Sequence record: PZ256263.1
DNA length: 64,000 nt
From: a phage
Strand: one strand, 5' to 3'
Below, one piece after another: positions 2,465-51,533 of the stretch; within the stretch, counting starts at the first letter, position 1, and the number at the start of each line of letters is the position of its first letter. A program made the position numbers and the translations under genes. A model generated the notes under the pieces. That model was not told where the DNA came from, made no database searches, and saw only the letters and a list, made by a program, of their open reading frames with translations.

Positions 2465-2830
2465 ATGGGTATTATCAAATTTGTAGTAAAAGTATTCGTA
2501 GGCTTCTTTCTGGTTGTTCTTCTGTTAGGTGTCCTGTTATCGGCTATGGGTAGCGTTAAGGCTGCAACATTCTCCCCTGCTACGGTGGAAGGTTTACAGT
2601 GCACCTATTTGATAGAAAATTATGATACCGGTAAAAAGTCACCTAAAGTTATTATTTTGCATGTAAATGATTTCGATCATGTGCAATCAGATAGTAAAAC
2701 TATTCTACTGGTAAATGAAACTACTGGTAAACAAATAACGGTCGATCACTTGATGCGCTCATCGTTAACGCTCTTTGATGAGTCTATGAATGAAATTGAG
2801 TCCGGTAATGGTCAATGTGTAAATCCATAG
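2465..2830 (+). CDS. Small membrane or secreted protein (121 aa)
   Basis: N-terminal hydrophobic stretch FVGFFLVVLLLGVLLSAMG; RBS-like AAAGG upstream. Confidence 0.55.
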   Translation: MGIIKFVVKVFVGFFLVVLLLGVLLSAMGSVKAATFSPATVEGLQCTYLIENYDTGKKSPKVIILHVNDFDHVQSDSKTILLVNETTGKQITVDHLMRSSLTLFDESMNEIESGNGQCVNP

Positions 2831-2906
2831 GCTTAATCTTTCTCCTGTATTGTGCCGTGGTCATGCCTATGGTCATAATCTATCTGATGCTTTAAATCCT
2901 TCCTGT

Positions 2907-2936
2907 AAGCCTCCTAGTGAGGCTTTTCTATTTTCT
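2907..2936 (+). terminator. Rho-independent terminator-like hairpin
   Basis: AAGCCTC / GAGGCTT stem with 5-nt loop followed by TTCTATTTTCT. Confidence 0.55.
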
Positions 2937-3107
2937 AAGGTGATTGTATACCTTACTCCCTTTTAGCTCATTGTGATGCGTTATAGGCCGCTTGTTATCG
3001 CTTTACAAGCCTTTTCCTATGATGTATCACGTTCGCCCGCTCTTTTACCTTCCCATAGTGAAAAAGTTTAAAATATTTTGTTTTACCCTATTGCATCCCT
3101 CACTGAT

Positions 3108-3116
3108 TAATGTATA
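3108..3116 (+). promoter_or_regulatory. TAATGTATA motif (candidate promoter for the phage sigma factor)
   Basis: Exact TAATGTATA; the same motif recurs upstream of several genes. No ORF lies immediately downstream, so function here is uncertain. Confidence 0.3.
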
Positions 3117-3216
3117 CTTCATTTCATCGGGTACGATGTAAAACATACAAGGCAAGGAAACTTGCCCCGCTCTTTAAAAATCAGGCTAGAAAGTGAAAAT
3201 ATTCTTAAAAAGAGTA

Positions 3217-3245
3217 TTGACACCGAAAACAGCCTGATATATAGT
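3217..3245 (+). promoter_or_regulatory. Strong host sigma70-like promoter (TTGACA, 17 nt, TATAGT)
   Basis: Consensus -35 at 3217-3222, 17-nt spacer, -10 TATAGT at 3240-3245; AT-rich UP-like sequence upstream. Confidence 0.65.
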
Positions 3246-3848
3246 GAGCATAGTCAGCGATGACTTAAAAAATCCCGCTCTTTAAAAATATGATTTGTCT
3301 TACGGGTGGCGGCGACGTCATTACTATAAGGCGCTCAGTTAATCGGTAGAATTGATTCCTGATTCATACGTGACGCAGGCGGACAATAAGCAATATCAAT
3401 AAGCCTTATTTGTTCGATACTTTCAAAAGATTAATGCTTGAAAGCGCACTAGATTCCCTGAAAGACAAATCAGACTTATCATCTTGCCCTTTCGCATAGA
3501 TTCACGCGAGATAAGGGAAAGGAATTAAAAGAAGATGATAAAAAGAGTTGCAAACGTGGTTAAAGTAGTCCATACTAACCACAAGTTAGCAAAACATCGC
3601 TAACTAGTTCCCAAATCAACGTATCGCGGGAAAGGTGGCACATAGTGCAGCGATTAGTTCAGGTGTAGGCGGCCTGTTAATGAATCAGTAAGCCTTCAAT
3701 GTGACAGTGATTAGCAGACACTTTAAAAGGCTAAACGCTCTTTAACAATATGAATCATAAGTTAAGCCTCACCGCTTAATCTTCAATCAAATAAAGCTGA
3801 TTGATATATCCTCCCAATAGTGGGAACGACGAAAAAGATTAAAAAGCG

Positions 3849-3877
3849 GTTGACAGCGAAAACAACATGATTCATAA
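3849..3877 (+). promoter_or_regulatory. Strong host sigma70-like promoter (TTGACA, 17 nt, CATAAT)
   Basis: Consensus -35 at 3849-3854, 17-nt spacer, -10 CATAAT at 3872-3877; flanks resemble the promoter at 3217. Confidence 0.65.
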
Positions 3878-4801
3878 TGAGCACTCACTAAGCAAATCAT
3901 CGCTTCAGTGAAAAGCGTAACAACGGCTAACAGTTGCATAGTGTGAGAAAGCACACTGATAGATTTACCGCTCTTTAATAATTTAAACATTCTCCTATAT
4001 CGGTTGAATATGTTAGATGATAATAACCATCGGATAACATACCAGATAAAACGGCGTAAAACTCCCTAAATTATCAGGGTAAACAGTTTTACATTCCCTT
4101 ACTGGAAACGTCACCACTGATAAACAGATTCATCGAGTACACGCAAAGACTTAAGCTAATCGCCCACGGTTAAGGGTAGCGGCGGTCATCGCTAACATGG
4201 TGCTACGGTGAAAGAAGTTAATCAGGGTAGGCAATCCCGACGAATTAACGCTCAATTGAGAGCGGCGGGGAGTGGTTAAAAAGTGGCAAATTGCTATTTA
4301 ACAATAAGGTTTAGTGTGAACGTTTACGATGTGAACGGCTTGAGATTCATCTTATGATGAAAGTACATAGTCGGTTTATGTAGTAAACTTGCCGAAAGAT
4401 ATAAAACGTCGGAACATTAGACGGTCAATGACTCTTTCGCAATAGTATCCCGTAGTGGGCGATGACTAGCGATTGAGAGTTGATATAAAAGGATAGGCGA
4501 GAGCGAAAGCAAAGTAAACGATATTGCCGACGGTTACAATAACGTAACTAATTAGAGTCGGACGCACTGCCTTATTGTGATGATTGATCATCGCTATCAG
4601 GTCGGCTTCGTTTATAGCGACTAATTAAAGATACCAGATGAAACATCACGGATAAGGGGGCGGCAAGGTTAACTCCTGATAAGACCGCCCCACTTACCTA
4701 TAACTACTGAATAGTTAGCGGTTATAGTTAAGTTAATAGCGACTTAAACAAGCTCATAGAGAGCGGGGCAATAGCGCCCTTATAATTGAAAGGTGAATAT
4801 C

Positions 4802-6527: not shown

Positions 6528-6971
6528 GTGGCTAAATCAAAAATCAGCATGAAGGGTGGGCGTTGTTTTTCTATCTCTGAACTGGAGAAAGAGAAGCCGA
6601 AGGCAACCAATCACGTCAGTAAGCGTAGTTTAAAACGTCGTGCTGCAAAGGCTGAAGCTGAATCCCATATTCCTTCTAGTGTGGCAAAGCGTATAGGCCA
6701 TCGTGTTCATCGTGCTGATGCGTTATTGTTAGCCGATCATAAACGTTCTTTATTACAGAGCGGGGGAGCTAAAACAGAAGAGGAGAAGAAGTTAGAAATC
6801 TTCTGTAATGGTCGCACCCGTGGTAAACAGAAGTTTAAGGGTAGCACTAAAGACCCTCAAGCATTTCCTAAGACAAGTCAGTGTGCGCCTGATGTTTTCT
6901 ACGCAGATAGTAAACACAAATGGGGAGTTGAAAAATACATTGACCCCATCAAAGAGGCAAGGGTTAAATAG
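6528..6971 (+). CDS. Hypothetical basic protein (147 aa)
   Basis: GTG start; Lys/Arg-rich sequence. Confidence 0.45.
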   Translation: MAKSKISMKGGRCFSISELEKEKPKATNHVSKRSLKRRAAKAEAESHIPSSVAKRIGHRVHRADALLLADHKRSLLQSGGAKTEEEKKLEIFCNGRTRGKQKFKGSTKDPQAFPKTSQCAPDVFYADSKHKWGVEKYIDPIKEARVK

Positions 6972-7051
6972 TAGGAATATAGCCCCCTCTTTTAGTACTA
7001 TGACGCTCTTTCTGTCGCGTCGTGCCCTCTCCCCATTTGAAGCTTCCGCAT

Positions 7052-7074
7052 AGCCGCCTTTGAGCGGCTTTTTG
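7052..7074 (+). terminator. Rho-independent terminator-like hairpin
   Basis: GCCGC / GCGGC stem followed by TTTTT. Confidence 0.55.
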
Positions 7075-7136
7075 CGTTGCTGTAAGTGCATTTGCGAGTG
7101 TATTTATAGCAACGGTCATGTGTTGCTTTCAGGTTT

Positions 7137-7163
7137 GCCCCGGCTACGGCTGGGGCTTTTTTA
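7137..7163 (+). terminator. Rho-independent terminator
   Basis: GCCCCGGC-tacg-GCTGGGGC stem (one G-U pair) followed by TTTTTTAT. Confidence 0.6.
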
Positions 7164-7211
7164 TGCCCGTAAAACAGGAGGTAGCAAGTTCTGATAACAA
7201 CGGCCCAGCTA

Positions 7212-7601
7212 ATGTTGACATTGACTATTTATTATGAGGCAGGGAATCAGCCAACCGCATGTAAAGCTATGGTTGCGGATACCGTGATAAATAGAATGGC
7301 CCAACGAAAACTGACCGCTGAACAGGTGATAAGACAAAAGAACCAGTTTGAGTGGATTCCGGTACTATTAAAACAGGAGAAACCTTATAAACGTTATGTA
7401 AAGCTGATTCGTGATAAAAATCCGATGACTAAGAAGGCCATTGGAGAAAGCGAGCGGCTGGCTAAACGTGCCCTTAAGAAGAATTATGTTCCGCTGTACA
7501 GTGGGACTTACTTTCAGAGTAAGAGCGAAGGGGTGCCAAAATGGTATGCCAATCCTATGTATTGTGGTGATTTAGTGTTCGATAATAGCTCTAGGGAATA
7601 A
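7212..7601 (+). CDS. SleB/CwlJ-like cell-wall hydrolase domain protein (129 aa)
   Basis: YYEAGNQ...VADTVINRM...VIRQKNQFEWIP...PKWYANP resembles the Hydrolase_2 (SleB/CwlJ) pattern by eye; start codon uncertain. Confidence 0.5.
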   Translation: MLTLTIYYEAGNQPTACKAMVADTVINRMAQRKLTAEQVIRQKNQFEWIPVLLKQEKPYKRYVKLIRDKNPMTKKAIGESERLAKRALKKNYVPLYSGTYFQSKSEGVPKWYANPMYCGDLVFDNSSRE

Positions 7602-7800
7602 TCACTAGTGCCAGATTTGACAAACTAAATTCCTTTATAAACCAACCACTTAGTAAATTTATTGAAAAAGATGGTAGTATTCTGGGACTATGGGTAATGC
7701 TCTGTATATAGACCCTTTGAAAATTTCTTAGAAAATAAGTTTACTAAATATAACTTACTTAAATAATATTACTTTTAATCTCTGATAAAGGGTAAACAAT

Positions 7801-8097
7801 ATGACTTTAGAAGTATATAAATTCCTTTTTGTAAGCTGTTTAACTATCAGCGTTCTAGGGTTTATTATTCTCAGAAACAAAGCAGCAAGCTGGGAGAGAA
7901 TGTACAAATCTCTAGTCCGAGTGGATGAGATGTATAATGAGAAAGTTAAAGCAACTCTTAACGATCTTATTATGCAAGTTGAGGACAGAAACAAGCGTCT
8001 TCAGAATCTCAACCATGAAGTATTACGCCTTGCTCGTGCTAATGAAGATTTGCGAGTAGCCATTGCTAAACAGCAGGAGATTAACAGTGAAGCATGA
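7801..8097 (+). CDS. Hypothetical membrane-anchored coiled-coil protein (98 aa)
   Basis: N-terminal hydrophobic segment then a heptad-like charged region. Confidence 0.5.
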   Translation: MTLEVYKFLFVSCLTISVLGFIILRNKAASWERMYKSLVRVDEMYNEKVKATLNDLIMQVEDRNKRLQNLNHEVLRLARANEDLRVAIAKQQEINSEA

Positions 8098-8344
8098 TAT
8101 CAATACAGCACCTGTGGTTAAGCAGCTTAAAGATCTAAGAGTGGGGGATGTTTTTGAAACTGTACCACATAAGAATAAGTTGTATCTTGTAGTAAAACTC
8201 GATTCTTCAACTGTTTATCAAGCCCAATGGAAACCTGATAAAAAGGTAGTAGTAGATCTTACTTCAGATAGAGTAACAATGTTGAGAAAAGATACTGTTG
8301 TTCAAATAGTTGATAATGTTCGTCTTACTAATAAGGTGGATTAA
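8087..8344 (+). CDS. Small paralogous protein, family A member 1
   Basis: Shares GDVF ... aromatic pair ... NLxTG-like pattern with 10 other ORFs; GTG at 8087 with CAGGAGA RBS (track start 8063). Confidence 0.5.
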   Translation: MKHDINTAPVVKQLKDLRVGDVFETVPHKNKLYLVVKLDSSTVYQAQWKPDKKVVVDLTSDRVTMLRKDTVVQIVDNVRLTNKVD

Positions 8345-8346
8345 CA

Positions 8347-8583
8347 GTGAAAGTTAATATTAAATCCGATCGTACAATGCTTCGCTTAAATAATATGAAG
8401 CCGGGCGTTCTATTTGAGCGTAAAGATTCCCTTTACATCAGAACCGACACTCTGTACGCAGATAATTATATCAACTGTGTTGATGTAGTAACTGGAAAGC
8501 TCATGCCTTTTAAACGGGATGAAGTCTGCCAAGTTCGTAGCGATCTCCACATAACTAACATAGAGGCTAAAGATGAAGATTGA
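8347..8583 (+). CDS. Small paralogous protein, family A member 2
   Basis: GTG start after AAGGTGGA; family A pattern (PGVLFERK ... LYIRT ... VDVVTGKL). Confidence 0.5.
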   Translation: MKVNIKSDRTMLRLNNMKPGVLFERKDSLYIRTDTLYADNYINCVDVVTGKLMPFKRDEVCQVRSDLHITNIEAKDED

Positions 8584-8824
8584 TCTTGAGATGAAAGCTA
8601 AAGAGTTGTGTGTGGGTGATTTGAAACTTGGTGATGTATTCCAAGTTAAGGCAACATGTATTGATTATTACATGATCGTTCAGCTATATACACCACATGT
8701 GTCAGAGACTGATCTTCGGAATGGTTGTGTAGTGCTTAGTTTAAGCACCAATCAAGTAATGAAGCTAGATTCAAACTTACCTGTTTCAGTTATCCATGAT
8801 GCAGTAATTACCAATCGGAAGTGA
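8573..8824 (+). CDS. Small paralogous protein, family A member 3
   Basis: LGDVFQV ... DYYMIV ... family A pattern. Confidence 0.55.
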   Translation: MKIDLEMKAKELCVGDLKLGDVFQVKATCIDYYMIVQLYTPHVSETDLRNGCVVLSLSTNQVMKLDSNLPVSVIHDAVITNRK

Positions 8825-8826
8825 AC

Positions 8827-9039
8827 ATGAACATTGAAAAGAAGGTTGTTGACGAGGCTGTTCAGTTACGATCTCTTGAAACACATGATGTATTTGTGTG
8901 GGGAGGTAGTCTGTTTCAGAAATCTGCTTATGCTGTAGAGGGTGGGGTTCGTTGTTTTAATATCTTCAACAATGAGATGCAAATCCTACCTAACTTCGCT
9001 CATGTGAATAAACTTATCCACCTTTCTATTTATCAATAA
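8827..9039 (+). CDS. Small paralogous protein, family A member 4 (divergent)
   Basis: ATG at 8827 after GGAAGTGA; weaker family A pattern (HDVFVWG). Confidence 0.45.
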   Translation: MNIEKKVVDEAVQLRSLETHDVFVWGGSLFQKSAYAVEGGVRCFNIFNNEMQILPNFAHVNKLIHLSIYQ

Positions 9040-9049
9040 GGGCAATTAG

Positions 9050-9268
9050 ATGGAAATTAAAGTAGTTGATTACCCTAAATATGCAAACGCAGAAGATGTC
9101 AAGGGCGGTGATGTTTTCTCTTACGATAGACGTTTCTGGCTGATGTTAGAAGATAAAACTCCTGATGGTTTGTGTAAGGCCGCTAACTTGAACAGTGGTT
9201 CTGTTGAAGTCTTTGGTCTATCAACAACTGTTATGCCACGTCCTGATCTGTGTTTATCTCAAAAGTAA
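9050..9268 (+). CDS. Small paralogous protein, family A member 5
   Basis: GGDVFSY ... FWLML ... ANLNSGSV family A pattern. Confidence 0.55.
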   Translation: MEIKVVDYPKYANAEDVKGGDVFSYDRRFWLMLEDKTPDGLCKAANLNSGSVEVFGLSTTVMPRPDLCLSQK

Positions 9269-9626
9269 CACCGACTTATAGCCCTTGTGCTTATCAGAGG
9301 GCTATGTGAGGGTGTTCCTCATTAACTTATTAATTCAGGCATATGCCACACCGCTAGGGAGAGCTTGCTCGAACATCCGGTGTTAGACTAAAACCTGTTA
9401 ATTTTCGAAAGACTTTCTGATATGTAGGGGTACATATTAGTTTGGGATTCAGGAGACTTCCTAGGGGTAGGGAGTCTTCACCAGTTGGAATAAGAGATAG
9501 CTCTAGAACCTGAACTCTTAGGCAGAGAAGGTCGGCAATGAGTACGCGGTCAGAATTAGTCTACTGACTAGGGCTATCCCTTATATCAACTGGCAATAAT
9601 GCCTCCACTAACAAAGAGAGATAGGT

Positions 9627-9767
9627 ATGAAAGTATCAACCAAACGTATGAACCGCCCTGAACGTATGGATGCAGTAGCTAACGGTGCTCTGAAACTGGA
9701 AGGCTTCTGGGTTCATGCAATGTCAGCCATCCGTAACAAGCAAGGTAATTGGACCTATGCCGGTTAA
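9627..9767 (+). CDS. Small hypothetical protein (46 aa)
   Basis: ATG preceded by a GAGAGA-like RBS; below the ORF-track size cutoff. Confidence 0.35.
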   Translation: MKVSTKRMNRPERMDAVANGALKLEGFWVHAMSAIRNKQGNWTYAG

Positions 9768-9789
9768 ATCAGTCCATGTAATAGGTATG

Positions 9790-9966
9790 CGAGAGATCAT
9801 TCGCATTGCCTTAATGGAACACACTGATCGCAACGCTCAACTAACGCAAATCTCTAAGTGTCTTAACTGTTCGAGAGATGTGGCTAAGGAATTAATGTTC
9901 GCATTCCTTTATAATGCAGAAGACGAAACGCTACAGAATCATCTGATTCGTGGTGTGAGTCAATAA
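9790..9966 (+). CDS. Small hypothetical protein, possible HTH (58 aa)
   Basis: Internal ATG of track ORF 9715-9966 chosen to avoid overlap; start uncertain. Confidence 0.35.
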   Translation, partial: REIIRIALMEHTDRNAQLTQISKCLNCSRDVAKELMFAFLYNAEDETLQNHLIRGVSQ

Positions 9967-9971
9967 AGAGA

Positions 9972-10000
9972 GGCTGCCTTCGGGCGGCCTTTGTTGTTTT
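9972..10000 (+). terminator. Rho-independent terminator
   Basis: GGCTGCC-ttcg-GGCGGCC stem (one G-U pair) followed by TTTGTTGTTTT. Confidence 0.6.
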
Positions 10001-10043
10001 AATTAAGGGACAACTCTTACTTAAACTAACAAGAGGTGCTTAT

Positions 10044-10391
10044 ATGAGATGCATAGTTAAAAGTTGGGAAACTAAATCGGGTCTTCGTGCTGTGATTATG
10101 CACATGAACAATTCCCACTTATGTGGGTATGTAGAGTTACCAGATAGTTTGAAACATAAAAACTTCACCGGATATAACGGAGAGGAAAAGGTTGTTTGTT
10201 ATGTGAACGTTCATGGTGGTGTCACATGGCAAGACACACTTGAAGAGATGGGTGGTTTGGATACAATCGGATTTGATTGTGCCCATGCAGGCGATAAGAC
10301 ACAGTTCAACCCTAACGGGGTTCCAAGAACAGAAGCGTTCTGCATCAACGAGTGCGAACAAATGGCTGAACAACTGAGAGATCTTGAATAA
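10044..10391 (+). CDS. Hypothetical protein (115 aa)
   Basis: ORF with AAGAGG RBS; His/Cys/Asp-rich, possible metal site; no confident family. Confidence 0.5.
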   Translation: MRCIVKSWETKSGLRAVIMHMNNSHLCGYVELPDSLKHKNFTGYNGEEKVVCYVNVHGGVTWQDTLEEMGGLDTIGFDCAHAGDKTQFNPNGVPRTEAFCINECEQMAEQLRDLE

Positions 10392-10569
10392 AATGTCTAA
10401 GCAAACAATCAAAAATACGCAAGCTGGTTACTCTTATGTTAACTCTCCTTGCTGTGGTGCTCGTGTTAATCTGGTTAAGGAAGAGGTTCGTATCGTTCAG
10501 CGTGGCGCTACTGTTGTTCGTTCATGCTGTGTCTGTGGTAATGATATCTTTATTAAAGGTAAAGTATGA
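10384..10569 (+). CDS. Small zinc-ribbon-like protein (61 aa)
   Basis: Two Cys pairs (CCGAR ... CCVCGND). Confidence 0.45.
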   Translation: MNKMSKQTIKNTQAGYSYVNSPCCGARVNLVKEEVRIVQRGATVVRSCCVCGNDIFIKGKV

Positions 10570-10817
10570 AAAACTTCCAAGCTGCACCAATAACTAAAGT
10601 GATCGAAGTTGATGATGCGATGATGACTGTTCCTCTGAACACTCGTTACATTGCAATTGACAAGATGGGTTATGTATGGGCTTGGAAGATTAAGCCTAGT
10701 TATAACGCATTGTTTGATGAGTTTGTTTGTACTGGTACTTACAGTCCTACATTCTTGGGTTTATTTGGAGAGTTTGATGGTAAGCATAAAATCATCACTC
10801 TCCCTGCTTGTGCTTGA
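10566..10817 (+). CDS. Hypothetical protein (83 aa)
   Basis: ATGA overlap with the upstream gene. Confidence 0.45.
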   Translation: MKNFQAAPITKVIEVDDAMMTVPLNTRYIAIDKMGYVWAWKIKPSYNALFDEFVCTGTYSPTFLGLFGEFDGKHKIITLPACA

Positions 10818-10824
10818 GGTTATT

Positions 10825-10989
10825 ATGTTCAAGTGGTTTAAACGTTTCTTCCATCTCCATGATTGGGAGACAATAAAAGAAATTCGTTTACACATATATA
10901 ATGAGATTGGTCAAATAGAAGACACAGGTACTCGTTATATACTTCGATGTAAAACATGTGGTCATATCACCAAGCGAGATATGATCTAA
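10825..10989 (+). CDS. Small hypothetical protein (54 aa) with C-terminal CxxC
   Basis: ATG at 10825 after GAGGTTATT; ends just upstream of the tRNA. Confidence 0.4.
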   Translation: MFKWFKRFFHLHDWETIKEIRLHIYNEIGQIEDTGTRYILRCKTCGHITKRDMI

Positions 10990-10997
10990 ATAATTCT

Positions 10998-11073
10998 GCG
11001 CTCTTAGCTCAATGGATAGAGCAGTAGCCTTCTAAGCTATTGGTTACAGGTTCGAGTCCTGTAGGGCGCACCA
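10998..11073 (+). tRNA. tRNA-Arg (anticodon UCU), 76 nt including CCA
   Basis: Hand-folded cloverleaf: acceptor GCGCTCT/AGGGCGC, D-arm GCTC-AATGGAT-AGAGC, anticodon loop CTTCTAA, T-arm ACAGG-TTCGAGT-CCTGT, discriminator A then CCA. Confidence 0.85.
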
Positions 11074-11093
11074 AAATCAAATAGGAGGTGGTT

Positions 11094-11393
11094 ATGAGTT
11101 GGGGTGGTGTAATATCCTTAATCTGTATCTTCCTTGTCTGTGTGGCCCTTACAGGCTGCGTACAGAGCCGTCCTGATGGGTGGTGTGCAGTAGCAGTGGA
11201 TGGTATTTGTGTATCTCGCTGGCATAAAGGTGAGAAGGTTCCTTCTGGTGAGATTGATATGCGCTGGAACGGGGCAACCTGCTCTAATGCTAACCCTTCT
11301 ATTAATGAAGAGAAGTCTACGCCAGACAATGTTGTGATTGATACAGCGTTGTGGTGTGGTGGCTCTACGATTACAACCGGTAAGGAGTGGTAA
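11094..11393 (+). CDS. Cys-rich lipoprotein (99 aa)
   Basis: AGGAGG RBS; signal peptide with lipobox LTGC (ICIFLVCVALTGC); about 10 Cys in the mature part. Confidence 0.55.
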   Translation: MSWGGVISLICIFLVCVALTGCVQSRPDGWCAVAVDGICVSRWHKGEKVPSGEIDMRWNGATCSNANPSINEEKSTPDNVVIDTALWCGGSTITTGKEW

Positions 11394-11394
11394 T

Positions 11395-11643
11395 ATGACA
11401 GCTCATTATTGGAATACAAAGAAGCTTCTTGAAGAGATGGCTGGGGGTAGTAGAGTACAGCTGATTTCTATGCTTAGGATGGATGCTCGCTCTTTACGTT
11501 TCCAAGTAAAGATTGGTAACTTCAGTGATGGTCTTTATTACACACTGAAGGAAAGAATTAAGAAGACTCACTTTATTATGTACGGAATCAAACCGAGAAC
11601 ATATGTTAACTACATGTATTGGGATACATGCTACGATAATTGA
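11395..11643 (+). CDS. Hypothetical protein (82 aa)
   Basis: ATG at 11395 after AAGGAG. Confidence 0.5.
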   Translation: MTAHYWNTKKLLEEMAGGSRVQLISMLRMDARSLRFQVKIGNFSDGLYYTLKERIKKTHFIMYGIKPRTYVNYMYWDTCYDN

Positions 11644-11649
11644 GGTTAT

Positions 11650-11872
11650 TATGTTATTAGAAGCTAAGCAAACATTACCAGTAGTTCCTTTGTCTACACT
11701 TCTTAGTGGGAGTGCTTTTAGACATGATAATGGTTTTTGGATTAAGGGCGACCAAGAGGTTGGAGGATATATTACCTGCATCAACATCTGCAACGGCGTT
11801 GTTGACGGATTTCGTCCAGCCGCTGAAGTCACTCCTCAATCCAACGCAAAGGTTGTAGGTTTGGTATATTAA
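11650..11872 (+). CDS. Small paralogous protein, family A member 6
   Basis: About 60 percent identical by eye to 11882-12103 (FWIK, GYITC, NG-VDG-RP, VGLVY). Confidence 0.55.
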
Positions 11873-11881
11873 GGAACTTAT

Positions 11882-12103
11882 ATGAAATTAGATTCTAAAC
11901 AATCCCTTAAAACTGTTGAACTGTCCACACTGCCAAACGGAAGTATTTTTGGTCATGATAAACACTTCTGGATTAAAACAGACTACTTGAACGATGGGTA
12001 TATTACCTGCGTCAACCTTTGGAATGGTTCAGTGGATGGCTATCGCCCTAGTGCAAAAGTAGTCCCTCAGCCTGATGCAAAGGCTATAGGTTTGGTCTAC
12101 TAA
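11882..12103 (+). CDS. Small paralogous protein, family A member 7
   Basis: Tandem duplicate of 11650-11872. Confidence 0.55.
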   Translation: MKLDSKQSLKTVELSTLPNGSIFGHDKHFWIKTDYLNDGYITCVNLWNGSVDGYRPSAKVVPQPDAKAIGLVY

Positions 12104-12112
12104 GGAGTTCAT

Positions 12113-12286
12113 ATGAGCTGTTATGGTGGAGGTGAAGTTTATGATGACGATGATATGGAATCTAATGGGGAATGCCCCGATTGCGGGTGTGAGACGTTTG
12201 ATGGTGTATCAGTGTACCCTACCTGTAGTTACTCACCAGTGATTTGTAAAACATGTGGAGATCAACCTTGTGATCAGTCCTGTTAG
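12113..12286 (+). CDS. Small Cys-rich protein (57 aa)
   Basis: AAGGAG RBS; CPDCGC ... CKTCGDQPCDQSC; acidic DDDD run. Confidence 0.5.
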   Translation: MSCYGGGEVYDDDDMESNGECPDCGCETFDGVSVYPTCSYSPVICKTCGDQPCDQSC

Positions 12287-12287
12287 T

Positions 12288-12503
12288 ATGTTAATTATTT
12301 ACCTGATAGGTGTGGTGTTATCAGGTGTGTTCGTTAAGGTTGTTGATATTAAAGATGATCAAGTCTTCAGACATTGGAGCGGATATCCAAATCTCAGCAA
12401 AATAGCAATTGTCCTTTTCTTGTGGCCTATCATTGTTGCGTTGCTTATAATTATAGGACTTTGGACTTTGCTATGGGAGTTAATTCTTCCTGTCAAAAAG
12501 TAA
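12288..12503 (+). CDS. Small membrane protein (about 71 aa, two predicted TM helices)
   Basis: Hydrophobic segments IIYLIGVVLSGVFV and IAIVLFLWPIIVALLIIIGLWTLLW. Confidence 0.45.
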   Translation: MLIIYLIGVVLSGVFVKVVDIKDDQVFRHWSGYPNLSKIAIVLFLWPIIVALLIIIGLWTLLWELILPVKK

Positions 12504-12798
12504 GAGCTTATCGTGAAGGATTCTTACGAGAGTCCTTTGAGATAGGACTTCAGATCTCCTATCAAACTAACATTCATGTAACTAGCCCATAAGGGCGTTA
12601 CCCTTTAATAACCCAGCCCACTAAGGGGGCGGGAGTTTAGTGCTGGATGAGCATAACGCTTATTCCTACAAAGGCAACCGATTGTTAGATCTTACATGCA
12701 AACTTAATTAATAGGATAAGGGAGGATTCGTCCCCTCCCCCTATTTTATTGAATCTTTATCTAAGCAAGTCTTATATAAATGTTTAATTGGGGGATGT

Positions 12799-13110
12799 AT
12801 GAAAGCTCGAAGAACTATATGGACTCCGATACAGATTGAAAATCTTCGGAGATTAATCAAAGAATACTCTGTCCAAGAGATTGCTCAGATTATGAATGTA
12901 ACGGAGAATGCAGTTAATACAGCTTGCACTAAGTTCGGAATCTCTAGAGCTGTAATCCGAGTTAAGTGGTCTAAAGAAGAAGATCAGTTCCTTATCCGTA
13001 ATGCTGGGTTCATGTCTATTCAGAGAATGGCTGACATGCTCGGTAGAAGTTATGCTGCTGTACAGAACAGGGCATGTATGCACCTTAACATTAGCCTCAA
13101 ACTTAAATAG
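12799..13110 (+). CDS. Putative DNA-binding protein with two HTH-like repeats (103 aa)
   Basis: Internal duplication W..x..L..Lxxxxxx..IAxxM.....AV. reminiscent of sigma region 4 / Myb-like HTH. Confidence 0.45.
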   Translation: MKARRTIWTPIQIENLRRLIKEYSVQEIAQIMNVTENAVNTACTKFGISRAVIRVKWSKEEDQFLIRNAGFMSIQRMADMLGRSYAAVQNRACMHLNISLKLK

Positions 13111-13118
13111 GAATCAAT

Positions 13119-13373
13119 ATGAAAGTTAATGAGTTAAACAAAACTACCAAGACTGTGAAACTGCACACTCTGAAAAAGGGTGATACATTCCGTTTAGAGG
13201 AGAATGGTCCAATCCATATGGTTTGTACTGCGGCATCTACTAACTGGGTAGAAGTTGCACGAGATCGAGTAGTGTGTGTCAGGCTGGAAGATGGTAGTCT
13301 GAGCGGTCCAGTTGAAGGTATCTCTGTTATTCCTGTTAAGGTTGAAGCTAACGTTATTAAGGACTCTAAATGA
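13119..13373 (+). CDS. Small paralogous protein, family A member 8
   Basis: KKGDTFRLE ... family A pattern. Confidence 0.5.
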   Translation: MKVNELNKTTKTVKLHTLKKGDTFRLEENGPIHMVCTAASTNWVEVARDRVVCVRLEDGSLSGPVEGISVIPVKVEANVIKDSK

Positions 13374-13615
13374 AGATCATCCCAAAGAAAAAGGATAATA
13401 CGGTACGGTTGGAAACGATCATTCCCGGAAACCCCTTCGTGGTTCAGCACGGAAGTGCCTCTCCTCAATATTATATGAGGGTTGAAAATGCTTCTGGTAA
13501 TATCCGTATAGCCAGTGGCTGGGTTCCTGTGGTAAACCTTTCCACAGGTGTACTATCTGTTAAAGGTCTTGATGATCAGGTAGAAATGATTCGTATGTCA
13601 GTGGTTCAGGAGTAG
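13370..13615 (+). CDS. Small paralogous protein, family A member 9
   Basis: QYYMRV ... VVNLSTGVL family A pattern. Confidence 0.55.
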   Translation: MKIIPKKKDNTVRLETIIPGNPFVVQHGSASPQYYMRVENASGNIRIASGWVPVVNLSTGVLSVKGLDDQVEMIRMSVVQE

Positions 13616-13617
13616 GT

Positions 13618-13866
13618 ATGAGCATCATTAATATTAAGGTTAAGGGCAAGGAGGAAATAGTCCTCCGTGTTAGAGATCTAAATATGTCAGATGTGTTCAC
13701 TCTCCAAGAGTGTCAGAATCAAAAGATTTATATGCTTACAGCTAAAAGCAGGGGCTGTCAACCTGCTGGAGCTGTTAACCTAGGCACTGGAGAACTACGT
13801 GTCATCTCTGGTGATATGGTTGTTGGTGAGAAGTTTATTAAGGCTGAAATCATCTTAACTTCATAG
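13618..13866 (+). CDS. Small paralogous protein, family A member 10
   Basis: SDVFTLQ ... IYMLT ... AVNLGTGEL family A pattern. Confidence 0.55.
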   Translation: MSIINIKVKGKEEIVLRVRDLNMSDVFTLQECQNQKIYMLTAKSRGCQPAGAVNLGTGELRVISGDMVVGEKFIKAEIILTS

Positions 13867-13874
13867 GTGATCTA

Positions 13875-14087
13875 ATGACACAAGAAGAGAAAGATATACT
13901 CATCCAGAATGCGTATCTACTGTTTTCCTCTGAGGATGTTCTGTTCGATCAGCTTTCTAAATTGTGGAAAGTGTCCGAAGAAGAGACTAAAGAGAAGTTT
14001 TATTCTGGCATAACAGAAGATTACAAATCTTTTCTTGGTGAGGTGCTGAGAGATCGGCATGTGTATCTAAGTAATTACGCCTGTTAA
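13875..14087 (+). CDS. Hypothetical acidic protein (70 aa)
   Basis: ORF with GGTGA-like RBS. Confidence 0.45.
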   Translation: MTQEEKDILIQNAYLLFSSEDVLFDQLSKLWKVSEEETKEKFYSGITEDYKSFLGEVLRDRHVYLSNYAC

Positions 14088-14320
14088 TAGGAAAACAAGT
14101 GATCACATTTAATGATTCTACAGAAGAAATGACCAACATGAAAGGCTTCGGTCAACGACAGCCTGACGGTTCAATTATCTGGTTCGTAAATGGACAGAAA
14201 AAGGTAGCTAAATAAGCCCTCTTCTCTCCTCCTTTTAGTACTATGACGCCTCTCTGTGGGCGGCCCAATTTGCGTAGGGAATTCCCTCTACGCAGTCATG
14301 ATTTTTAAGGAATTTCCCCT

Positions 14321-15556: not shown

Positions 15557-16750
15557 ATGTTTCCAGTAACATTAGAAGATACTGAAGGTAATGTTTTAAC
15601 GGTCAACCCTCCTTGTTATGGGTTCCTTCAGCTTCGCAACTATAACGGTGGCGTTGATGAAGATGATGACGAAGATGAATACTTCGACCCTAACATGTAT
15701 GAGGCAACTCATGGGTGGAATATGCACGTTCGAGTGTGGCATGAAGAAGCTAACGTTCGTAGTGCTGATGGGGAAGAGTTCCTGTTGAGCCGAGAGATGG
15801 ATATGTGTAAAATCAAGCATATCTGGAACTCCGGAACTCACATGAAGATGTTAGGTTTTAGACGTTGGCGTGATGAAAAACCTGTATCCGCAGCTTTAGG
15901 TTGGGGTGCTATTGATTACGAAGGCGAGCTTAAAAACAACATTGAACGTTGGAATGACAAAAACCCTGAACATCGAACCACACCTCGTGCTGTACTGGAA
16001 GCTATGGAAGCATTTGTGGACAAAGATCGTCCCTCCTGTTTACGCTGGCACGATAAAGGTTTTATGGGGGTAGCAACTGAAAATGTTCCTGCTGATCGTT
16101 GTCTATTCTATTTGATGTTAGATCGAACCTTCTATTGTGAAGATGAAGAGAGTCAAGTTGAAACCTTCCTCCACAAATGGTTGGTTGAAGGCTGGACAAT
16201 CCTTCAGTCTTATGTTTACTCACGAATGGTTAGCACTTACACTAACCTCTTGGGTGAAACGAAAGCAACTCTGGTTGGTAATGATTGGGATGCTTGTATC
16301 TTCCCAGCGTCACTATTTACAGTCGGCATGGCTGATAAATACGCTGAAGCATTTCAAGTGCCTTGGCGTCAACAGTCGTATAGAGACGGGTGTGGTCACT
16401 TCCGTGATGAAGACTTTAAGTGGATTCATTATGAGAACGATGAAACAGCAGAATTGCGAGTTAACAACTCAATGTTCTTGCCAGTGATGCACCCCGATCT
16501 AGTAAAAGATGGGTCAGAGATACTTAAAGGTGATAATCTTTTGGTTAACTTTACCCGTCGCGTGTCTAAAAATGAGAGAACAGCTAACAGGCTAATCTAC
16601 GGCATTCGTGCCGAGGCTAAAGACCTGTTCAACATCTACAACATTATTCAGCGATTTAGTAGTGGAACTCTGGACCAAAGTTCGGAGTATTCAGTGATTC
16701 CATCCTCTGAGTGGGATGGTATTATGAGCGGATTATTTTTAGGAAAATAA
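15557..16750 (+). CDS. Hypothetical protein (397 aa), first gene of the amidoligase module
   Basis: Acidic DEDDDEDE run and conserved Cys/His/Trp; no family recognised by eye; contiguous with downstream module genes. Confidence 0.55.
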   Translation: MFPVTLEDTEGNVLTVNPPCYGFLQLRNYNGGVDEDDDEDEYFDPNMYEATHGWNMHVRVWHEEANVRSADGEEFLLSREMDMCKIKHIWNSGTHMKMLGFRRWRDEKPVSAALGWGAIDYEGELKNNIERWNDKNPEHRTTPRAVLEAMEAFVDKDRPSCLRWHDKGFMGVATENVPADRCLFYLMLDRTFYCEDEESQVETFLHKWLVEGWTILQSYVYSRMVSTYTNLLGETKATLVGNDWDACIFPASLFTVGMADKYAEAFQVPWRQQSYRDGCGHFRDEDFKWIHYENDETAELRVNNSMFLPVMHPDLVKDGSEILKGDNLLVNFTRRVSKNERTANRLIYGIRAEAKDLFNIYNIIQRFSSGTLDQSSEYSVIPSSEWDGIMSGLFLGK

Positions 16751-16760
16751 AAGGTTAGTT

Positions 16761-17732
16761 ATGTCAATCTCCACAACGATCGTACCTCAGAATCTTCAAC
16801 AAGATTTAGGGGAACAGAAGTTCTTAGGTCGTGGGTGCTTCGGTATTCACAACTACATGCAAGGCCAGTGTGTAAATGACATTAATGGTGAAGTTATCAC
16901 GGAAGAAGGGCGCTATCGTCGCTTCAACCGCGATATCAACTTGCAACTGGAGATGTTGAATTACTGGACTCACTCTTTTCATGGTCATGTTGCATCCGAT
17001 ATTGAAAAGAACTTGATTGAAACAGCGGACATTATGAACTCTATGTCTTGCTATCGTGATGTATTTACAATCACTTCAGCGAACAGTGTTGCTGTCAATC
17101 TTCGTGAGCATCCAGCAGATCAGATCTTCACAGGACTTATGCTCTTCCGTAGCATTCTGGAAGGGCAGTATCGTGGAATGGATTTCCTAGCAGAAGGAAT
17201 TGAAGACAGGGAAGAGTGGCTGAAGCGTAAACGCATCGGAATCGCTCTAGTGTTAGCTGGGTTAGGTCGTGACTTCTTCGGTGGGTGGTCTCAACGAGGA
17301 ATAGCCAATGGGAATAGCGAGAGCACCTCTATTGTTATTAATAACAATATGTCAGCAGCAGCATTCCTTCCTTTGGTTGTAGACTCTGATGAATACACGA
17401 AACAAGTATGGGTTCAAAATCCCTTCGGTGTTGGTGACAATGAGAATGGTTATGTTCGTAACCATAACCCAGAGGCCTTACGAAGATTTGCTCGTGCTAA
17501 AGATCAAGACCCAACTGAGTATGCAACAATGTCAGAGTGGTTAAGACTCTGGTCCATCTGTTATGGTCACAAACGTGAAGCAATAGACGACAAGTTGGGA
17601 AACATTACAGTACAAAACTTTACAGCCCGACTGATTCAAAGAACTGGAGCAGATTCCGGTCTTACTCTTGAAGAAGTTGGTAACACAATCTCATCTCTCT
17701 TTTCTGAACTAGTGGAGTATTACAATGACTAA
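16761..17732 (+). CDS. Hypothetical protein (323 aa), amidoligase module
   Basis: Tight spacing with neighbours; no recognisable motif. Confidence 0.55.
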   Translation: MSISTTIVPQNLQQDLGEQKFLGRGCFGIHNYMQGQCVNDINGEVITEEGRYRRFNRDINLQLEMLNYWTHSFHGHVASDIEKNLIETADIMNSMSCYRDVFTITSANSVAVNLREHPADQIFTGLMLFRSILEGQYRGMDFLAEGIEDREEWLKRKRIGIALVLAGLGRDFFGGWSQRGIANGNSESTSIVINNNMSAAAFLPLVVDSDEYTKQVWVQNPFGVGDNENGYVRNHNPEALRRFARAKDQDPTEYATMSEWLRLWSICYGHKREAIDDKLGNITVQNFTARLIQRTGADSGLTLEEVGNTISSLFSELVEYYND

Positions 17733-30242: not shown

Positions 30243-30569
30243 ATGTTAGATTTGAGTAAAGTGGCCCCGCCCACTGAAGAGATTACAAAATCCAAGGTGA
30301 TGCAACAGTTTTATCATCGTGATATGCTTGGTCGCTTTATCAAGAATCGTGATGTTGTTGCTTGGTCTATTGGTAATCAGGGATATCTGTTGAAGGTTCT
30401 TCAGGTTACAGGTTCAACTGCTAAGCGGGTTAAGGTGTATGACCCTGAAATGGGGCGTTCTAAGTCAGTAGACCCACAGAACTGCATCGTAATTACCCAG
30501 CAGGTGATAGCAAATCTAGAAAGAAATGTAGCAAACTCTACTGAGTTAGAAGGAGAAGACCCTAAGTGA
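30243..30569 (+). CDS. Hypothetical protein (108 aa)
   Basis: GGAGAGAG RBS. Confidence 0.5.
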   Translation: MLDLSKVAPPTEEITKSKVMQQFYHRDMLGRFIKNRDVVAWSIGNQGYLLKVLQVTGSTAKRVKVYDPEMGRSKSVDPQNCIVITQQVIANLERNVANSTELEGEDPK

Positions 30570-31060
30570 TTCCAAAGGAATTGGAAGGGAAGATTGATGT
30601 AACAGAAGATGGTAGAGTATTTACTATAAAGAGTGGAAGGTTTTTAACCCTCCACACTAATGGTGCCTATTACAGAGTTACTATTTACTTTCCTGAAGGA
30701 TTAAAGAATTTCTATGTCCACAGGCTGGTTGCTAGTAAGTACATACCGAACCCTGATAATCTTCCATGTGTCAACCATAAGGATGGCAATAAACTCAACA
30801 ATCATAAAGATAATCTTGAATGGTGTACCCACCGAGAAAACTCTCAACATGCATCATCATTAGGTCTGATGGTACAGAGGTTTGGAGAAGACAATCCACA
30901 GTCTAAACTTACTCTAGAAGATGTAGAGTACTGTAGGAGAGTTTATATCCCTCGAGATAAAGAGTTTGGAGGCTCTGCCCTTGCAAGACGTTTTGGTGTC
31001 TCTCAGCAAGTGATATCAAAAGTTCTACTTAATCAAACTTGGAGGGAATATAATGCATAA
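30566..31060 (+). CDS. HNH homing endonuclease (164 aa)
   Basis: NHKDGNKLNNHKDNLEWCTHRENSQHA HNH signature plus C-terminal HTH-like region. Confidence 0.8.
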   Translation: MIPKELEGKIDVTEDGRVFTIKSGRFLTLHTNGAYYRVTIYFPEGLKNFYVHRLVASKYIPNPDNLPCVNHKDGNKLNNHKDNLEWCTHRENSQHASSLGLMVQRFGEDNPQSKLTLEDVEYCRRVYIPRDKEFGGSALARRFGVSQQVISKVLLNQTWREYNA

Positions 31061-34675: not shown

Positions 34676-34698
34676 TAATGTATACTCCTTAATGTACA
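34676..34698 (+). promoter_or_regulatory. Tandem TAATGTATA / TAATGTACA motifs (candidate phage-sigma promoters)
   Basis: Exact consensus at 34676-34684 and a near copy at 34690-34698, 37 nt upstream of an AAGGAG RBS and the ATG at 34721. Confidence 0.4.
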
Positions 34699-34720
34699 CT
34701 GATATATTAAGGAGTTTTAA

Positions 34721-35035
34721 ATGGCAGACCATGTAGGAAAGAGAGATTATGCACAAGAAAGACGTACCGCAATTGCCCGTGGTGAGACAGGCGTTGGGAG
34801 CAAGAGCGGAGATGCTCAGCGCCACCGTGCACGTCGCATCGTTGAAAAGCGCGATGGAAAAGCTGCTGTCAGAGGTAAAGATGTTGGACACAAACGAGCT
34901 GTCAAGTCTGGAGGCTCTAATGCGTCAAGCAACTTACGTGTTGAATCAGTCAGCTCAAACCGTTCAAACGGCGGCAAAAGTGGTGATCGAGCTGGAAAAG
35001 CAGCTGGAGCACGCAAAGGAGCTTTAAGCTCATAA
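34721..35035 (+). CDS. Highly basic Gly/Ser/Arg/Lys-rich protein (104 aa), likely abundant
   Basis: Consensus AAGGAG RBS at ideal spacing; third-position A/T bias matches other genes, unlike the G-rich third positions of overlapping ORF 34749-35027. Confidence 0.5.
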   Translation: MADHVGKRDYAQERRTAIARGETGVGSKSGDAQRHRARRIVEKRDGKAAVRGKDVGHKRAVKSGGSNASSNLRVESVSSNRSNGGKSGDRAGKAAGARKGALSS

Positions 35036-47064: not shown

Positions 47065-50000
47065 TCACTCCTTAGGTCGAACTCTTACACGGAGTCTCGA
47101 TTGACGCTTACTGCGTTCAAGCTTCTCTGACAATGAGCCACGTTTAATCTTCGGCTTCCCTTCGTCATTAAACTTCTCCAAGAACTGCAAGTACTCAGTA
47201 CGATTAGTTGTCTTGTAAGAAGGAATCTTAATATCAGGGTTCTCTTCAATCACACGTCTAATCTTCGCTACATCATCCCTACCAAGCAACTTACTCTTAG
47301 CCTGTTCAGCTGTAGAACCAAAGATCTTCTCCAGTGCTCTGGATTTGTTACCACCTGCGGAAGAAGCACCAAGTTTAGCAATGGCAGAGTAATCATCAGC
47401 ACTAAACCAAGCTACTGGATTATCACCATACTTCTTCTTGTTTTCAGCAGCAGTCTGCAATGCACGTACAAATCGACGGTTGTTACCAGCCTTATCTGCA
47501 CCATGAACCCTGTCTAAAACTTCAGCCACACTAGCCAACTCATCCAAGCTCTTCCCACTCAAGAAAGCTTTCTCTACTTTATCAGCAAATACCTCTTCCT
47601 GTTGTTTAATGCTTTCCAAGATATCAGAATTTGCTTGAGATCTTTCATCATCAGGCAGAGCAGAACGAATCTTCTCCATCTCCAACTCTTCCTCTTGCAG
47701 TTTCTTAATATCAGAGTCAACCTTCTGAGCCTCCTCAACAGCCTTCCTAGTATCCGCATCCAAGTTATCAAGCTTACCTTCAGTATCTCCAGTAACCTTA
47801 ACAATCTCTTTCTCGATAGGAGTCATTGATTCGTACTTCTTAGCAAACTTCTCAACATCAGCTTCGATACGAGAACGAGCATTCTGATGTTCAGTAGGAG
47901 TCATAGGCTTCTCAAGAAGTGCATAACGGTTATCCATATAGGAACCAGCAAATGCTTCAGCATCCTCTCTAGATATGCCCTTATCTTCCATAGTACGCAT
48001 CAGGCGGCGATGAATGTCATCACGTTGACGTTGTACTGCCATAAGGTCATTCTCACGCTCTTGAGCTGCTTTAAGCTCTTCACTGCGCTTAACTCTCTTG
48101 TCCACATCAAACTTACGGTTCATCTCTTCCGCTTGCTCATACATCTTGTTCAACTTGGCCTGACGAGCATCTTCCTCTGCATCAGTTAAACGACGCTGAC
48201 GATCAAGGTAATCTGACTCGGCGTTGTGGATACGTTCAATATAACTACGGAACTTCTCTGGAGGAACTGGAGAGTTCTTGTCATGGTGAGCAGCCAACTG
48301 TTTCAATGTACGAGATTCCTGAGCCTCACGAACAGGTTTAGGTAAACCTTCCATCATCTTCTCAATCTCACTCTTCTGAGCTGCAATAGCCTCTAGAGTT
48401 TTACGTTCATTCTCAACAGCAGCCTTAGCATCTGAACGAGCCTGAGCCTTTTTCCTGAGGGTAGCAAGACGTTCTTCACGAGCCTGTAAGTGCTTAGCAG
48501 CAGCTTCGTACTGAGAGTTCTTGTTAGCTTTGTTGAAGGCATTCACTTCTCTGTTGTAGGTGTTGATAAACCCATCCCAAATATCCTTCATCTGACCAAC
48601 TTCCAAAGCCTCTTCCCTACCAGCCTTCTCTGAAGATTTAAACTTCCCATCTACAAAGTCATTCATCAGCTTACGCATAGCATCTTTCTGAGCAGGACGT
48701 AAAGGTTCTGAATCAATCAAAGTATCAATCTCAGACTGAAGCTCTTTCTTCTGGTCAACCAGTTTAGGAGCATCCTTCTTATCGAAAGCTTTGTTTTCTT
48801 CTAGAGCTTGTTGATACAGTCTATCAAACTCATCCTCACGCTGCTTCTGATACAACCTTTCAGCACGACGTTTCAGACTATCTAAGTTAGTTACGTTCCC
48901 ACCTAAACCTTTCTCTTCAGCACGTAATGCCTTAGTAGCAATATCTTCTGGCAGACCACGTTCCTTAACCCATTCAGCAAAATTAGTTCGTACAGTGTTG
49001 TTCTTAGCAGTAGCAATACCTTGCTGAGAAGCCAGCTGGTTACGAGCCATTTCTTCATGACGTTCAGTGTTGATAGCATTATCTTCCTGACGAATACGAC
49101 GCATCAATTCCTTAGGATCACCCTTATAAGCCAAGAAGTTTTCAGCAGTAGCCTTAGCCTTAGCAGCCTTAGAGTACAGAGAACGAGCAAAACGTTCTGC
49201 ACGATCTTTAGTAGCCTGACGAGCAGCACTAGACATAGCAGCTAAACGTTCTACACCACTTGCCGGTTTAACGTCCTGTACAGCTTCCTTAGGAGCTTTA
49301 GGAGCACGGGCAGGTAATGGCTCAGCTTTGACTGTTGGTTCCTCTACGGTAGGTTCTGGAGCCTGTGCGGCCTCTTCTTGAGCACGTTGCTGTTCCATTG
49401 CACGACGCTCCTCTAAAGGGTTACGAGCAGGGAGAGGTTCAGCCTGTGGAGCTTGTTCGACCGGAGCTTCTTGAGCAGCTGCTGCCTCTTCTTCAGCGCG
49501 ACGCTGTTCAGCCTGACGGATAGCACGTCTTTGCGCAACTAAATCACGAGCTGTGAGAGAAGTTTCTTGAGGAGCAGAAGAAGGAAGATTTTCTTCCGTC
49601 ACAGTACTAGAAGAAGGCTCCCGAACCGGTTCGGTTTCCACGTCATTTTGCGTCTTAAATTTAATGTCATCAACAACTGGTTCTTCTTCCATCTTAGCAC
49701 GAGCTTCATCAGCAGTAGACTTAGCACGAGCAACTTCCAAATCACCACGAGCCAGAGAGCGGATAGCTTCACTGTTAGACTCTTGTTGCTTAACACGTTG
49801 AGAACGGGCACGCTGAGAAGAGAAGCGATTCAGAGCATACTTAGCAGCACCGAGAGTGTTCATTACCAGGCTAGGTGAAGAAGCCTCACGGAATCCATCA
49901 TCAGTCAGGGAAGTCCAACCACGATCTTGGTTACTCATAAACTTAGCCGTATTGTTCAGAGTGTAAGCATCTTGGATAGGATTAAAACCTTCAGGCATAC

Positions 50001-51486: not shown

Positions 51487-51524
51487 AACGTCTCCTTTTA
51501 TAAATAAAAATGTCCTACCCCCTA

Positions 51525-51533
51525 TATACATTA
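51525..51533 (-). promoter_or_regulatory. TAATGTATA motif (candidate phage-sigma promoter)
   Basis: Minus-strand CTATAATGTATATA, 39 nt upstream of the ATG at 51486. Confidence 0.4.

Follow-up and report, generated by a model that had tools for sequence, protein, structure and literature searches.

We analysed a stretch of 64,000 nucleotides of phage DNA (sequence record PZ256263.1), hereafter the window, and followed up a short sequence which recurs in two of its early intergenic regions and which probably marks positions where one strand of the genome would be nicked. The window is from a Kuravirus, a phiEco32-like podovirus of E. coli within the subfamily Gordonclarkvirinae, and over the compared stretch of 11 kilobases (kb) it is 98.9% identical to ev_rybdy3 and ~92-94% identical to phiEco32, SU10 and Paul. 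Its first base is the physical genome end and its orientation is the reverse complement of the phiEco32 record, so that the + strand codes for the early and middle genes and the - strand, from ~47,000 onward, for the late ones.

An exact-match scan placed the 17-mer TTTTAGTACTATGACGC at 6990-7006 and 14233-14249, on the + strand in both cases, bearing out the original prediction of an identical 17-mer in two distant intergenic regions. Full identity reaches 18 bases, CTTTTAGTACTATGACGC, at 6989-7006 (site 1) and 14232-14249 (site 2), both on the + strand and both intergenic within the early operon, and includes a 10-base core, TACTATGACG, at 6996-7005 and 14239-14248. The trailing bases had been given as (T/C)CT, which is slightly off, copy 1 continuing as TCTTTCT and copy 2 as CTCTCTG. 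As had been described, each copy lies just 3′ of a stop codon and 5′ of hairpins, the stop codon being that of an open reading frame (ORF) at 6528-6971 for copy 1 and that of a small ORF which ends at 14216 for copy 2. At site 1 and downstream of it on the + strand are a small hairpin at 7002-7021 (GACGC/GCGTC), the 5′ arm of which is inside the core, and two terminator-like hairpins, T1 at 7052-7069, which is invariant across three genera, and T2 at 7137-7156, which is the stronger of the two. At site 2 a small + strand hairpin (CGCC/GGCG, 14247-14262) overlaps the 3′ end of the core and is followed on the same strand by a hairpin at 14270-14295, terminator-like with a T run offset from the stem.

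Pairwise alignment of the two regions showed that their similarity stops near the 18-mer, beyond which only pyrimidine-rich flanks are held in common, and the copies are therefore not the remnant of a larger duplication. A recent duplication lacking conservation in relatives, which had been named as the finding that would undo the proposal, is likewise contradicted by the absence of a longer shared block and by the retention of the sites in related phages. The 18-mer is the only dispersed exact repeat of at least 17 bases in the window, and a scan of IMG/VR with the exact 17-mer returned three Kuravirus contigs only. Direct exact 17-mer repeats arose however in 4 of 30 shuffled windows, so that the exact repeat by itself is weak evidence (p ~0.1), and the earlier statement that it is unlikely by chance is only weakly supported by the 17-mer alone; it does hold once the count and conservation of the core are added. 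TACTRTGACG occurs three times in the window against 0.11 expected, a number reached in none of 100 shuffles, and this excess together with conservation across three genera is much more than chance would give.

The third of these occurrences lies elsewhere in the genome. Both originally predicted sites stand, but a further copy of the core, TACTGTGACG, is present on the opposite (-) strand at 49597-49606 (site 3), within a late ORF of 1488 amino acids (47065-51531) homologous to phiEco32 gene 26. Exactly the same three sites are found in the whole genome of phiEco32, and all three are on the non-template (sense) strand of the local transcription unit.

The window was compared over its early region with ten more genomes (Paul, NJ01, an IMG/VR contig, phiEco32, KarlSchell_Bas89, EP335, SU7, 101114UKE3, IME267 and ECBP2), those with genus-level taxonomy covering all three genera, Kuravirus, Nieuwekanaalvirus and Suseptimavirus. 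Sites 1 and 2 were sampled in 11 genomes (22 instances) and site 3 in 8 genomes (8 instances). Sites 1 and 2 occupy equal map positions in all 11 genomes, and the sole variation within the 10-mer at any of the three sites is A or G at position 5, with G found at site 1 of phiEco32, site 2 of EP335 and site 1 of KarlSchell. In the alignment of the site 1 intergenic region from the 11 genomes invariance is limited to two blocks, TACT-R-TGACG and terminator T1, the flanks being unrelated between lineages, while the site 2 region is better conserved overall. Site 3 is invariant in its 8 genomes of 3 genera within a segment of ~70% mean column identity. The codon preceding it differs (AGT Ser, ACT Thr or GCT Ala) yet its third base is always T, the first base of the motif, and the retention of T by three different codons indicates selection on the nucleotide sequence at this position.

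It has been known for decades that some phage genomes, among them those of T5, phiKMV-like phages, tf and LUZ24-like phages, contain site-specific nicks. In the Pseudomonas putida phage tf localized single-strand interruptions occur at 5′-TACT/RTGMC-3′, with 14 ligatable nicks on one strand in >90% of virions, and sites that deviate from the motif at position 1, 3 or 4 escape nicking (Glukhov et al. 2012, PMC3517423). LUZ24, PaP3 and MR299-2 each contain 8-9 copies of TACTATGAC on one strand (PMC3517423), and native Nanopore reads of phage Rembedalsseter contain 13 strand breaks at WACTRTGAC, a motif enriched in ~60 related phages (Dougherty et al. 2025, PMC11780129). All three sites of the window, like all 22 and 8 of the sampled Gordonclarkvirinae instances, match TACTRTGMC exactly, and the natural variation within the core is confined to position 5, one of the two degenerate positions of tf (5 and 8). 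G stands directly 3′ of 12 of the 14 sites in the tf sequence, so that the match with the Kuravirus core spans 10 positions.

The resemblance is unlikely to be a coincidence since the two phages are related. The primase-helicase of the window is 47% and its DNA polymerase 40% identical to that of tf, and both exonucleases and a cluster of COOH-NH2 ligase, amidoligase, glutamine amidotransferase and ATP-grasp genes are also common to the two, largely in the same order. Kuravirus and tf thus share an identical core, including the degenerate R and the usual next G, in podoviruses with short direct terminal repeats, a replication and amidoligase module and a homologue of a small HNH-like protein considered below, and in both most sites are on the coding strand of the early region. 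They differ in that tf has 14 sites on one strand, mostly within genes, at which nicks have been demonstrated, whereas Kuravirus has three sites on both strands, two of them intergenic with extra conserved flanks and hairpins, at which nicks are predicted. Rembedalsseter and the ~60 LUZ24-like phages share the same motif, and a homologue of the small HNH-like protein is present in Rembedalsseter and LUZ24. That group was however found by strand-biased enrichment, at ~9 net copies per genome (PMC11780129), a criterion which Kuravirus, with a net strand difference of one copy, would escape; no enzyme was proposed. The nicks of T5 (R/GCGCRGG) and phiKMV-like phages (CGACNNNNNCCTA/CTCCGG) are likewise site-specific, strand-specific and ligatable in virion DNA, but their motifs and the phages themselves are unrelated to the Kuravirus case, and no homologue of the small HNH-like protein was found in either group at the tblastn sensitivity used. 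A role of the motif in the making of genome termini was rejected, as the termini of Kuravirus and tf do not resemble it.

The most conserved protein common to the window and tf is not the polymerase but a protein of 104 amino acids encoded at 34721-35035 on the + strand, a homologue of phiEco32 gp58 (phrog_4590) which we refer to as the mini-HNH and consider the candidate nickase. A reading frame of tf that lacks annotation encodes a protein with 62% identity to it. The tf homologue occupies 16129-16416 (+) in a frame different from that of the annotated tf_29 (16115-16429, described with one transmembrane region), with a TTG start at 16129 following GGAG, and tf_29 has apparently been called in the wrong frame. 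Differences between the window and tf sit at synonymous positions of the mini-HNH frame, which shows that this frame is the real gene. Records of LUZ24 and many relatives assign the locus to a hypothetical protein or have it overlap 'DNA polymerase part I'.

Its HNH-like core reads DVGHKRAVKSGGSNASSNLRVESVSSN in the window protein and VVDHVKRVKDGGSNAPSNLRVRSLKSN in that of tf; H57, N71 and N80 are invariant in 39 diverse homologues and have HNH spacing. An N-terminal block, RGETGVGSKSGDAQRHRARR, is mostly invariant in the same 39. The family is entered in PHROGs under unknown function, while some source records label homologues as 'HNH endonuclease' or 'McrA'. An AlphaFold model with a mean predicted local distance difference test score (pLDDT) of 72.7 places strands at 53-57 and 72-76 followed by a helix at 77-86, giving a predicted beta-beta-alpha core at the motif. 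Among the Foldseek matches in the PDB ~14 of 19 bear the name of an HNH or colicin-type nuclease and 3 more belong to an Rhs endonuclease toxin, every match having E>1, which reflects the shortness of the alignable core; they include McrA, Cas8-HNH, the Gme HNH nicking enzyme and colicins E7 and E9. Small phage HNH enzymes such as the Gme HNH nicking enzyme (PDB 4h9d) and the terminase-associated HNH proteins (PMC3592412) resemble the mini-HNH in their length of ~100 amino acids, the H..N..N motif and the beta-beta-alpha core, here predicted, and HNH enzymes commonly nick one strand. The mini-HNH differs from them by having no CxxC zinc ligands, no Pfam HNH match and no significant structural or sequence match, and by an N-terminal block unique to its family.

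A perfect match to the consensus promoter element of gp36, the phage sigma factor, TAATGTATA, is present at 34676-34684 (+), 37 nucleotides upstream of the mini-HNH start codon, with a ribosome-binding site (AAGGAG) at 34710-34715 on the same strand. The gp36 consensus is a single element, tAATGTAtA, 6-8 nucleotides 5′ of the start site, and a gp36 promoter has been reported upstream of phiEco32 gene 58 (PMC8948821, PMC4331800); the same sequence is listed in supplementary table S2 of the SU10 report. The position of this element points to expression of the mini-HNH in the middle period of infection. Other nickases among the shared genes were sought by Pfam scans of 20 further window proteins, which showed one HNH_3 protein at 30566-31060 and no other nuclease. 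The HNH_3 protein, of 164 amino acids on the + strand, is a canonical homing-type endonuclease. [quoted passage not shown]

Members of the mini-HNH family were identified by tblastn in 254 phage records, ~100 from Gordonclarkvirinae and 105 from Pseudomonas phages, the latter including LUZ24, PaP4 and Rembedalsseter, in which the gene directly follows that of the 3′-5′ exonuclease. Further matches come from 7-11-like Salmonella and Proteus phages and from phages of Cronobacter, Vibrio, Aeromonas and Photobacterium. TACTRTGMC is found 14 times on the + and never on the - strand of tf (46 kb, ~0.6 expected per strand), six times and never in Photobacterium phage PhCF1.2 (49.6 kb, ~0.75 expected per strand), where G follows 5 of the 6 sites, and five times and never in Salmonella phage SeKF_80 (40 kb, ~0.65 expected per strand). 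The strand-exclusive occurrence of TACTRTGAC in PhCF1.2 and SeKF_80 suggests that these lineages also have nicked genomes that have gone unreported. The sites are preceded by TAC in PhCF1.2 and, in most cases, by AC in SeKF_80.

The analysis shows that the motif is identical to the nick consensus, that its sites are conserved, that the phages are related and that the HNH family and the motif co-occur. We consider it probable that a tf-type nicking system recognizes the two 17-mers and the third site through TACT(A/G)TGACG; that Kuravirus DNA is nicked, and by the mini-HNH, is what we infer from sequence comparison. A nickase encoded by the phage would cleave between T4 and R5 on one strand only, by analogy with tf at T6999/A7000 in site 1 and T14242/A14243 in site 2, both on the + strand, and at 49603/49602 on the - strand in site 3. 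Packaged DNA would then have ligatable nicks at distances of ~7.0 kb and ~14.2 kb from the early end in the coding strand of the early genes and a third at ~49.6 kb in the coding strand of the late genes, every nick falling in the non-template strand of the local transcription unit. The mini-HNH at 34721-35035 would be the most likely nickase, although the joint claim that the nicks exist and that this protein makes them is put forward tentatively. With similar reserve we propose that the mini-HNH (phiEco32 gp58 family) could be the nickase behind TACT/RTGAC, in a system that would span LUZ24-like phages, Gordonclarkvirinae, Salmonella 7-11-like phages and marine Photobacterium phages and would place three nicks in Kuravirus. 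Three roles were suggested originally, those of a binding site for a protein, a target of an endonuclease and a signal for processing. The second is favoured, as the core is the sequence at which nicks have been mapped in tf and LUZ24-like phages, with the mini-HNH rather than the canonical homing HNH_3 as candidate enzyme; a processing signal in RNA is less likely.

A number of observations weigh against this interpretation. No report of the motif or of nicks in any Kuravirus was found in the literature searched. There are only three sites per genome, and these are divided between the strands (two + and one -) where tf, Rembedalsseter, PhCF1.2 and the SeKF_80 segment use one strand only. At the level of the 9-mer there is no enrichment, TACTRTGMC occurring three times in the 64-kb window (two + and one -) against 2.16 expected (~1.0-1.1 per strand). 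The mini-HNH had no match in Pfam at E values up to 10 and none in the PDB by sequence-profile search, its assignment resting on the motif and a model of moderate confidence together with Foldseek matches of E>1. Nor is the co-occurrence of HNH family and motif universal, as it fails in Aeromonas phage LAh_6, which encodes a mini-HNH homologue of 67% identity and has no site on either strand in 74 of its 101 kb (~0.7 expected per strand per 40 kb). This exception may reflect a changed specificity of the enzyme, avoidance of the motif or a looser link between enzyme and motif than proposed here; the shorter ACTRTGAC is found once in the 74 kb of LAh_6 against ~4.5 expected. Lastly, the pyrimidine tracts, small hairpins and adjacent terminators of the intergenic sites are not explained by a plain 10-bp nick site, which leaves room for an RNA-level or dual function.

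The alternative which survives best, while unlikely, is that the sites are recognized by a sequence-specific DNA protein, possibly the mini-HNH itself, in a role other than persistent virion nicks, for example in nick-primed replication, in the initiation of recombination or as a boundary or operator in the early operon. The conserved 10-mer and the co-occurring HNH family would fit such a role equally well, and the presence of only three sites, against 9-14 in the nicked phages, would fit it too. So would the location of sites 1 and 2 at operon boundaries beside conserved terminators and the variation between genomes in gene content downstream of site 1. The same sequence is however physically nicked in the great majority of tf virions (PMC3517423), and the motif has no documented role as an origin, as an operator or in recombination.

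Somewhat less probable again is an RNA element acting in the sense transcripts, either as an attenuator or terminator or as a signal for RNase processing or stability at early mRNA 3′ ends. The sense strand carries all three sites, and a small hairpin starting in or just after the core was found in 7 of 8 folded contexts, its 3′ arm differing by lineage (GACGC/GCGTC, CGCC/GGCG or GACGCTC/GAGCGTC). It is followed by a T run at site 1 of SU7, where it is annotated as a terminator, and at site 2 of EP335, and the region of 199 nucleotides around site 1, terminators included, folds better than its shuffles (z-score -3.9). An intrinsic terminator formed by the motif itself was not found in the window, where the hairpins at 7002-7021 and 14247-14262 have no T run. 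The invariant block is moreover the 10-mer and not the hairpin, site 1 of KarlSchell_Bas89 having the 10-mer without any hairpin. Site 3 is situated mid-way in the gene of 1488 amino acids, and in relatives the 10-mer is a DNA nick site, most copies of which are within coding sequences at varied positions. No Rfam family matches; a known RNA family was rejected as Rfam gave only tRNA and noise, a match to MicX at 7035-7164 being far below the gathering cut-off.

That host sigma-70 or the phage sigma gp36 reads the motif as a promoter is very improbable: in favour are the likeness of TACTAT to a -10 hexamer and the intergenic location of both copies, but copy 1 would fire directly into two terminators and the third site is within a gene. 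There is no -35 element and no extended -10 (TGn), a promoter scan gave no site at 6980-7010 or 14225-14255, and neither copy matches tAATGTAtA. Equally remote is a chance repeat or decaying duplication remnant without function, which the shuffles yielding 17-mer repeats and the unremarkable 9-mer count would allow but which is hard to reconcile with a core overrepresented as a 10-mer, kept invariant at three syntenic positions in three genera while its flanks diverge, and lacking any longer duplicated block. A lambda-like boxA/nut antitermination signal was also rejected; CGCTCTTTC is present in copy 1 but absent from copy 2 and the orthologues and is outside the invariant core.

If the sites are nicked as proposed, tf-type nicking would reach beyond Pseudomonas phages into a well-studied group of E. 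coli phages, and Kuravirus would become a minimal and genetically tractable E. coli model for the role of phage genome nicks, each of the sites being separately mutable since there are only three and their positions are fixed. The mini-HNH provides a concrete candidate enzyme that can be tested in vitro and by deletion, and its gene is mis-annotated in tf and several LUZ24-like phage records. Strand breaks would also affect the Nanopore sequencing and assembly of these phages, which are therapeutic candidates.

Further features were noted around the intergenic sites. A pyrimidine tract, CCCTCTTCTCTCCTCCTTTT, upstream of site 2 (14217-14238) is kept across all three genera and contains CCTCC, resembling the anti-Shine-Dalgarno end of 16S rRNA; loading of Rho and sequestration of a ribosome-binding site are possibilities for its role. 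The tandem terminator-like hairpins at 7052-7156 downstream of site 1 are also kept across genera, and the stretch just beyond them is a variable slot, in which phiEco32 has an 'agglutinating adhesin' gene and gene 118 (genes 119 and 118 inserted) and the window has nothing. No strong sigma-70-like promoter was seen for many kilobases downstream of these hairpins.

An exact copy of the gp36 element TAATGTATA also occurs at 3108-3116 (+) in the long non-coding early-promoter region (2830-4790), ~100 bp upstream of a strong sigma-70-like promoter at 3217-3245, and is absent from the six published gp36 promoters of phiEco32. Besides the 18-mer the only other long exact self-match in the window is a perfect palindrome of 20 bp, TATTGTTATTAATAACAATA, at 17330-17349 within the ORF at 16761-17732. 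The ATG within sites 1 and 2 opens short ORFs at 6999-7052 (17 codons) and 14242-14308 (21 codons), but small peptides encoded from these start codons were rejected, there being no ribosome-binding site and no conservation of the sequence beyond the core. The nick sites sci1, sci4 and sci11 of tf likewise overlap start codons.

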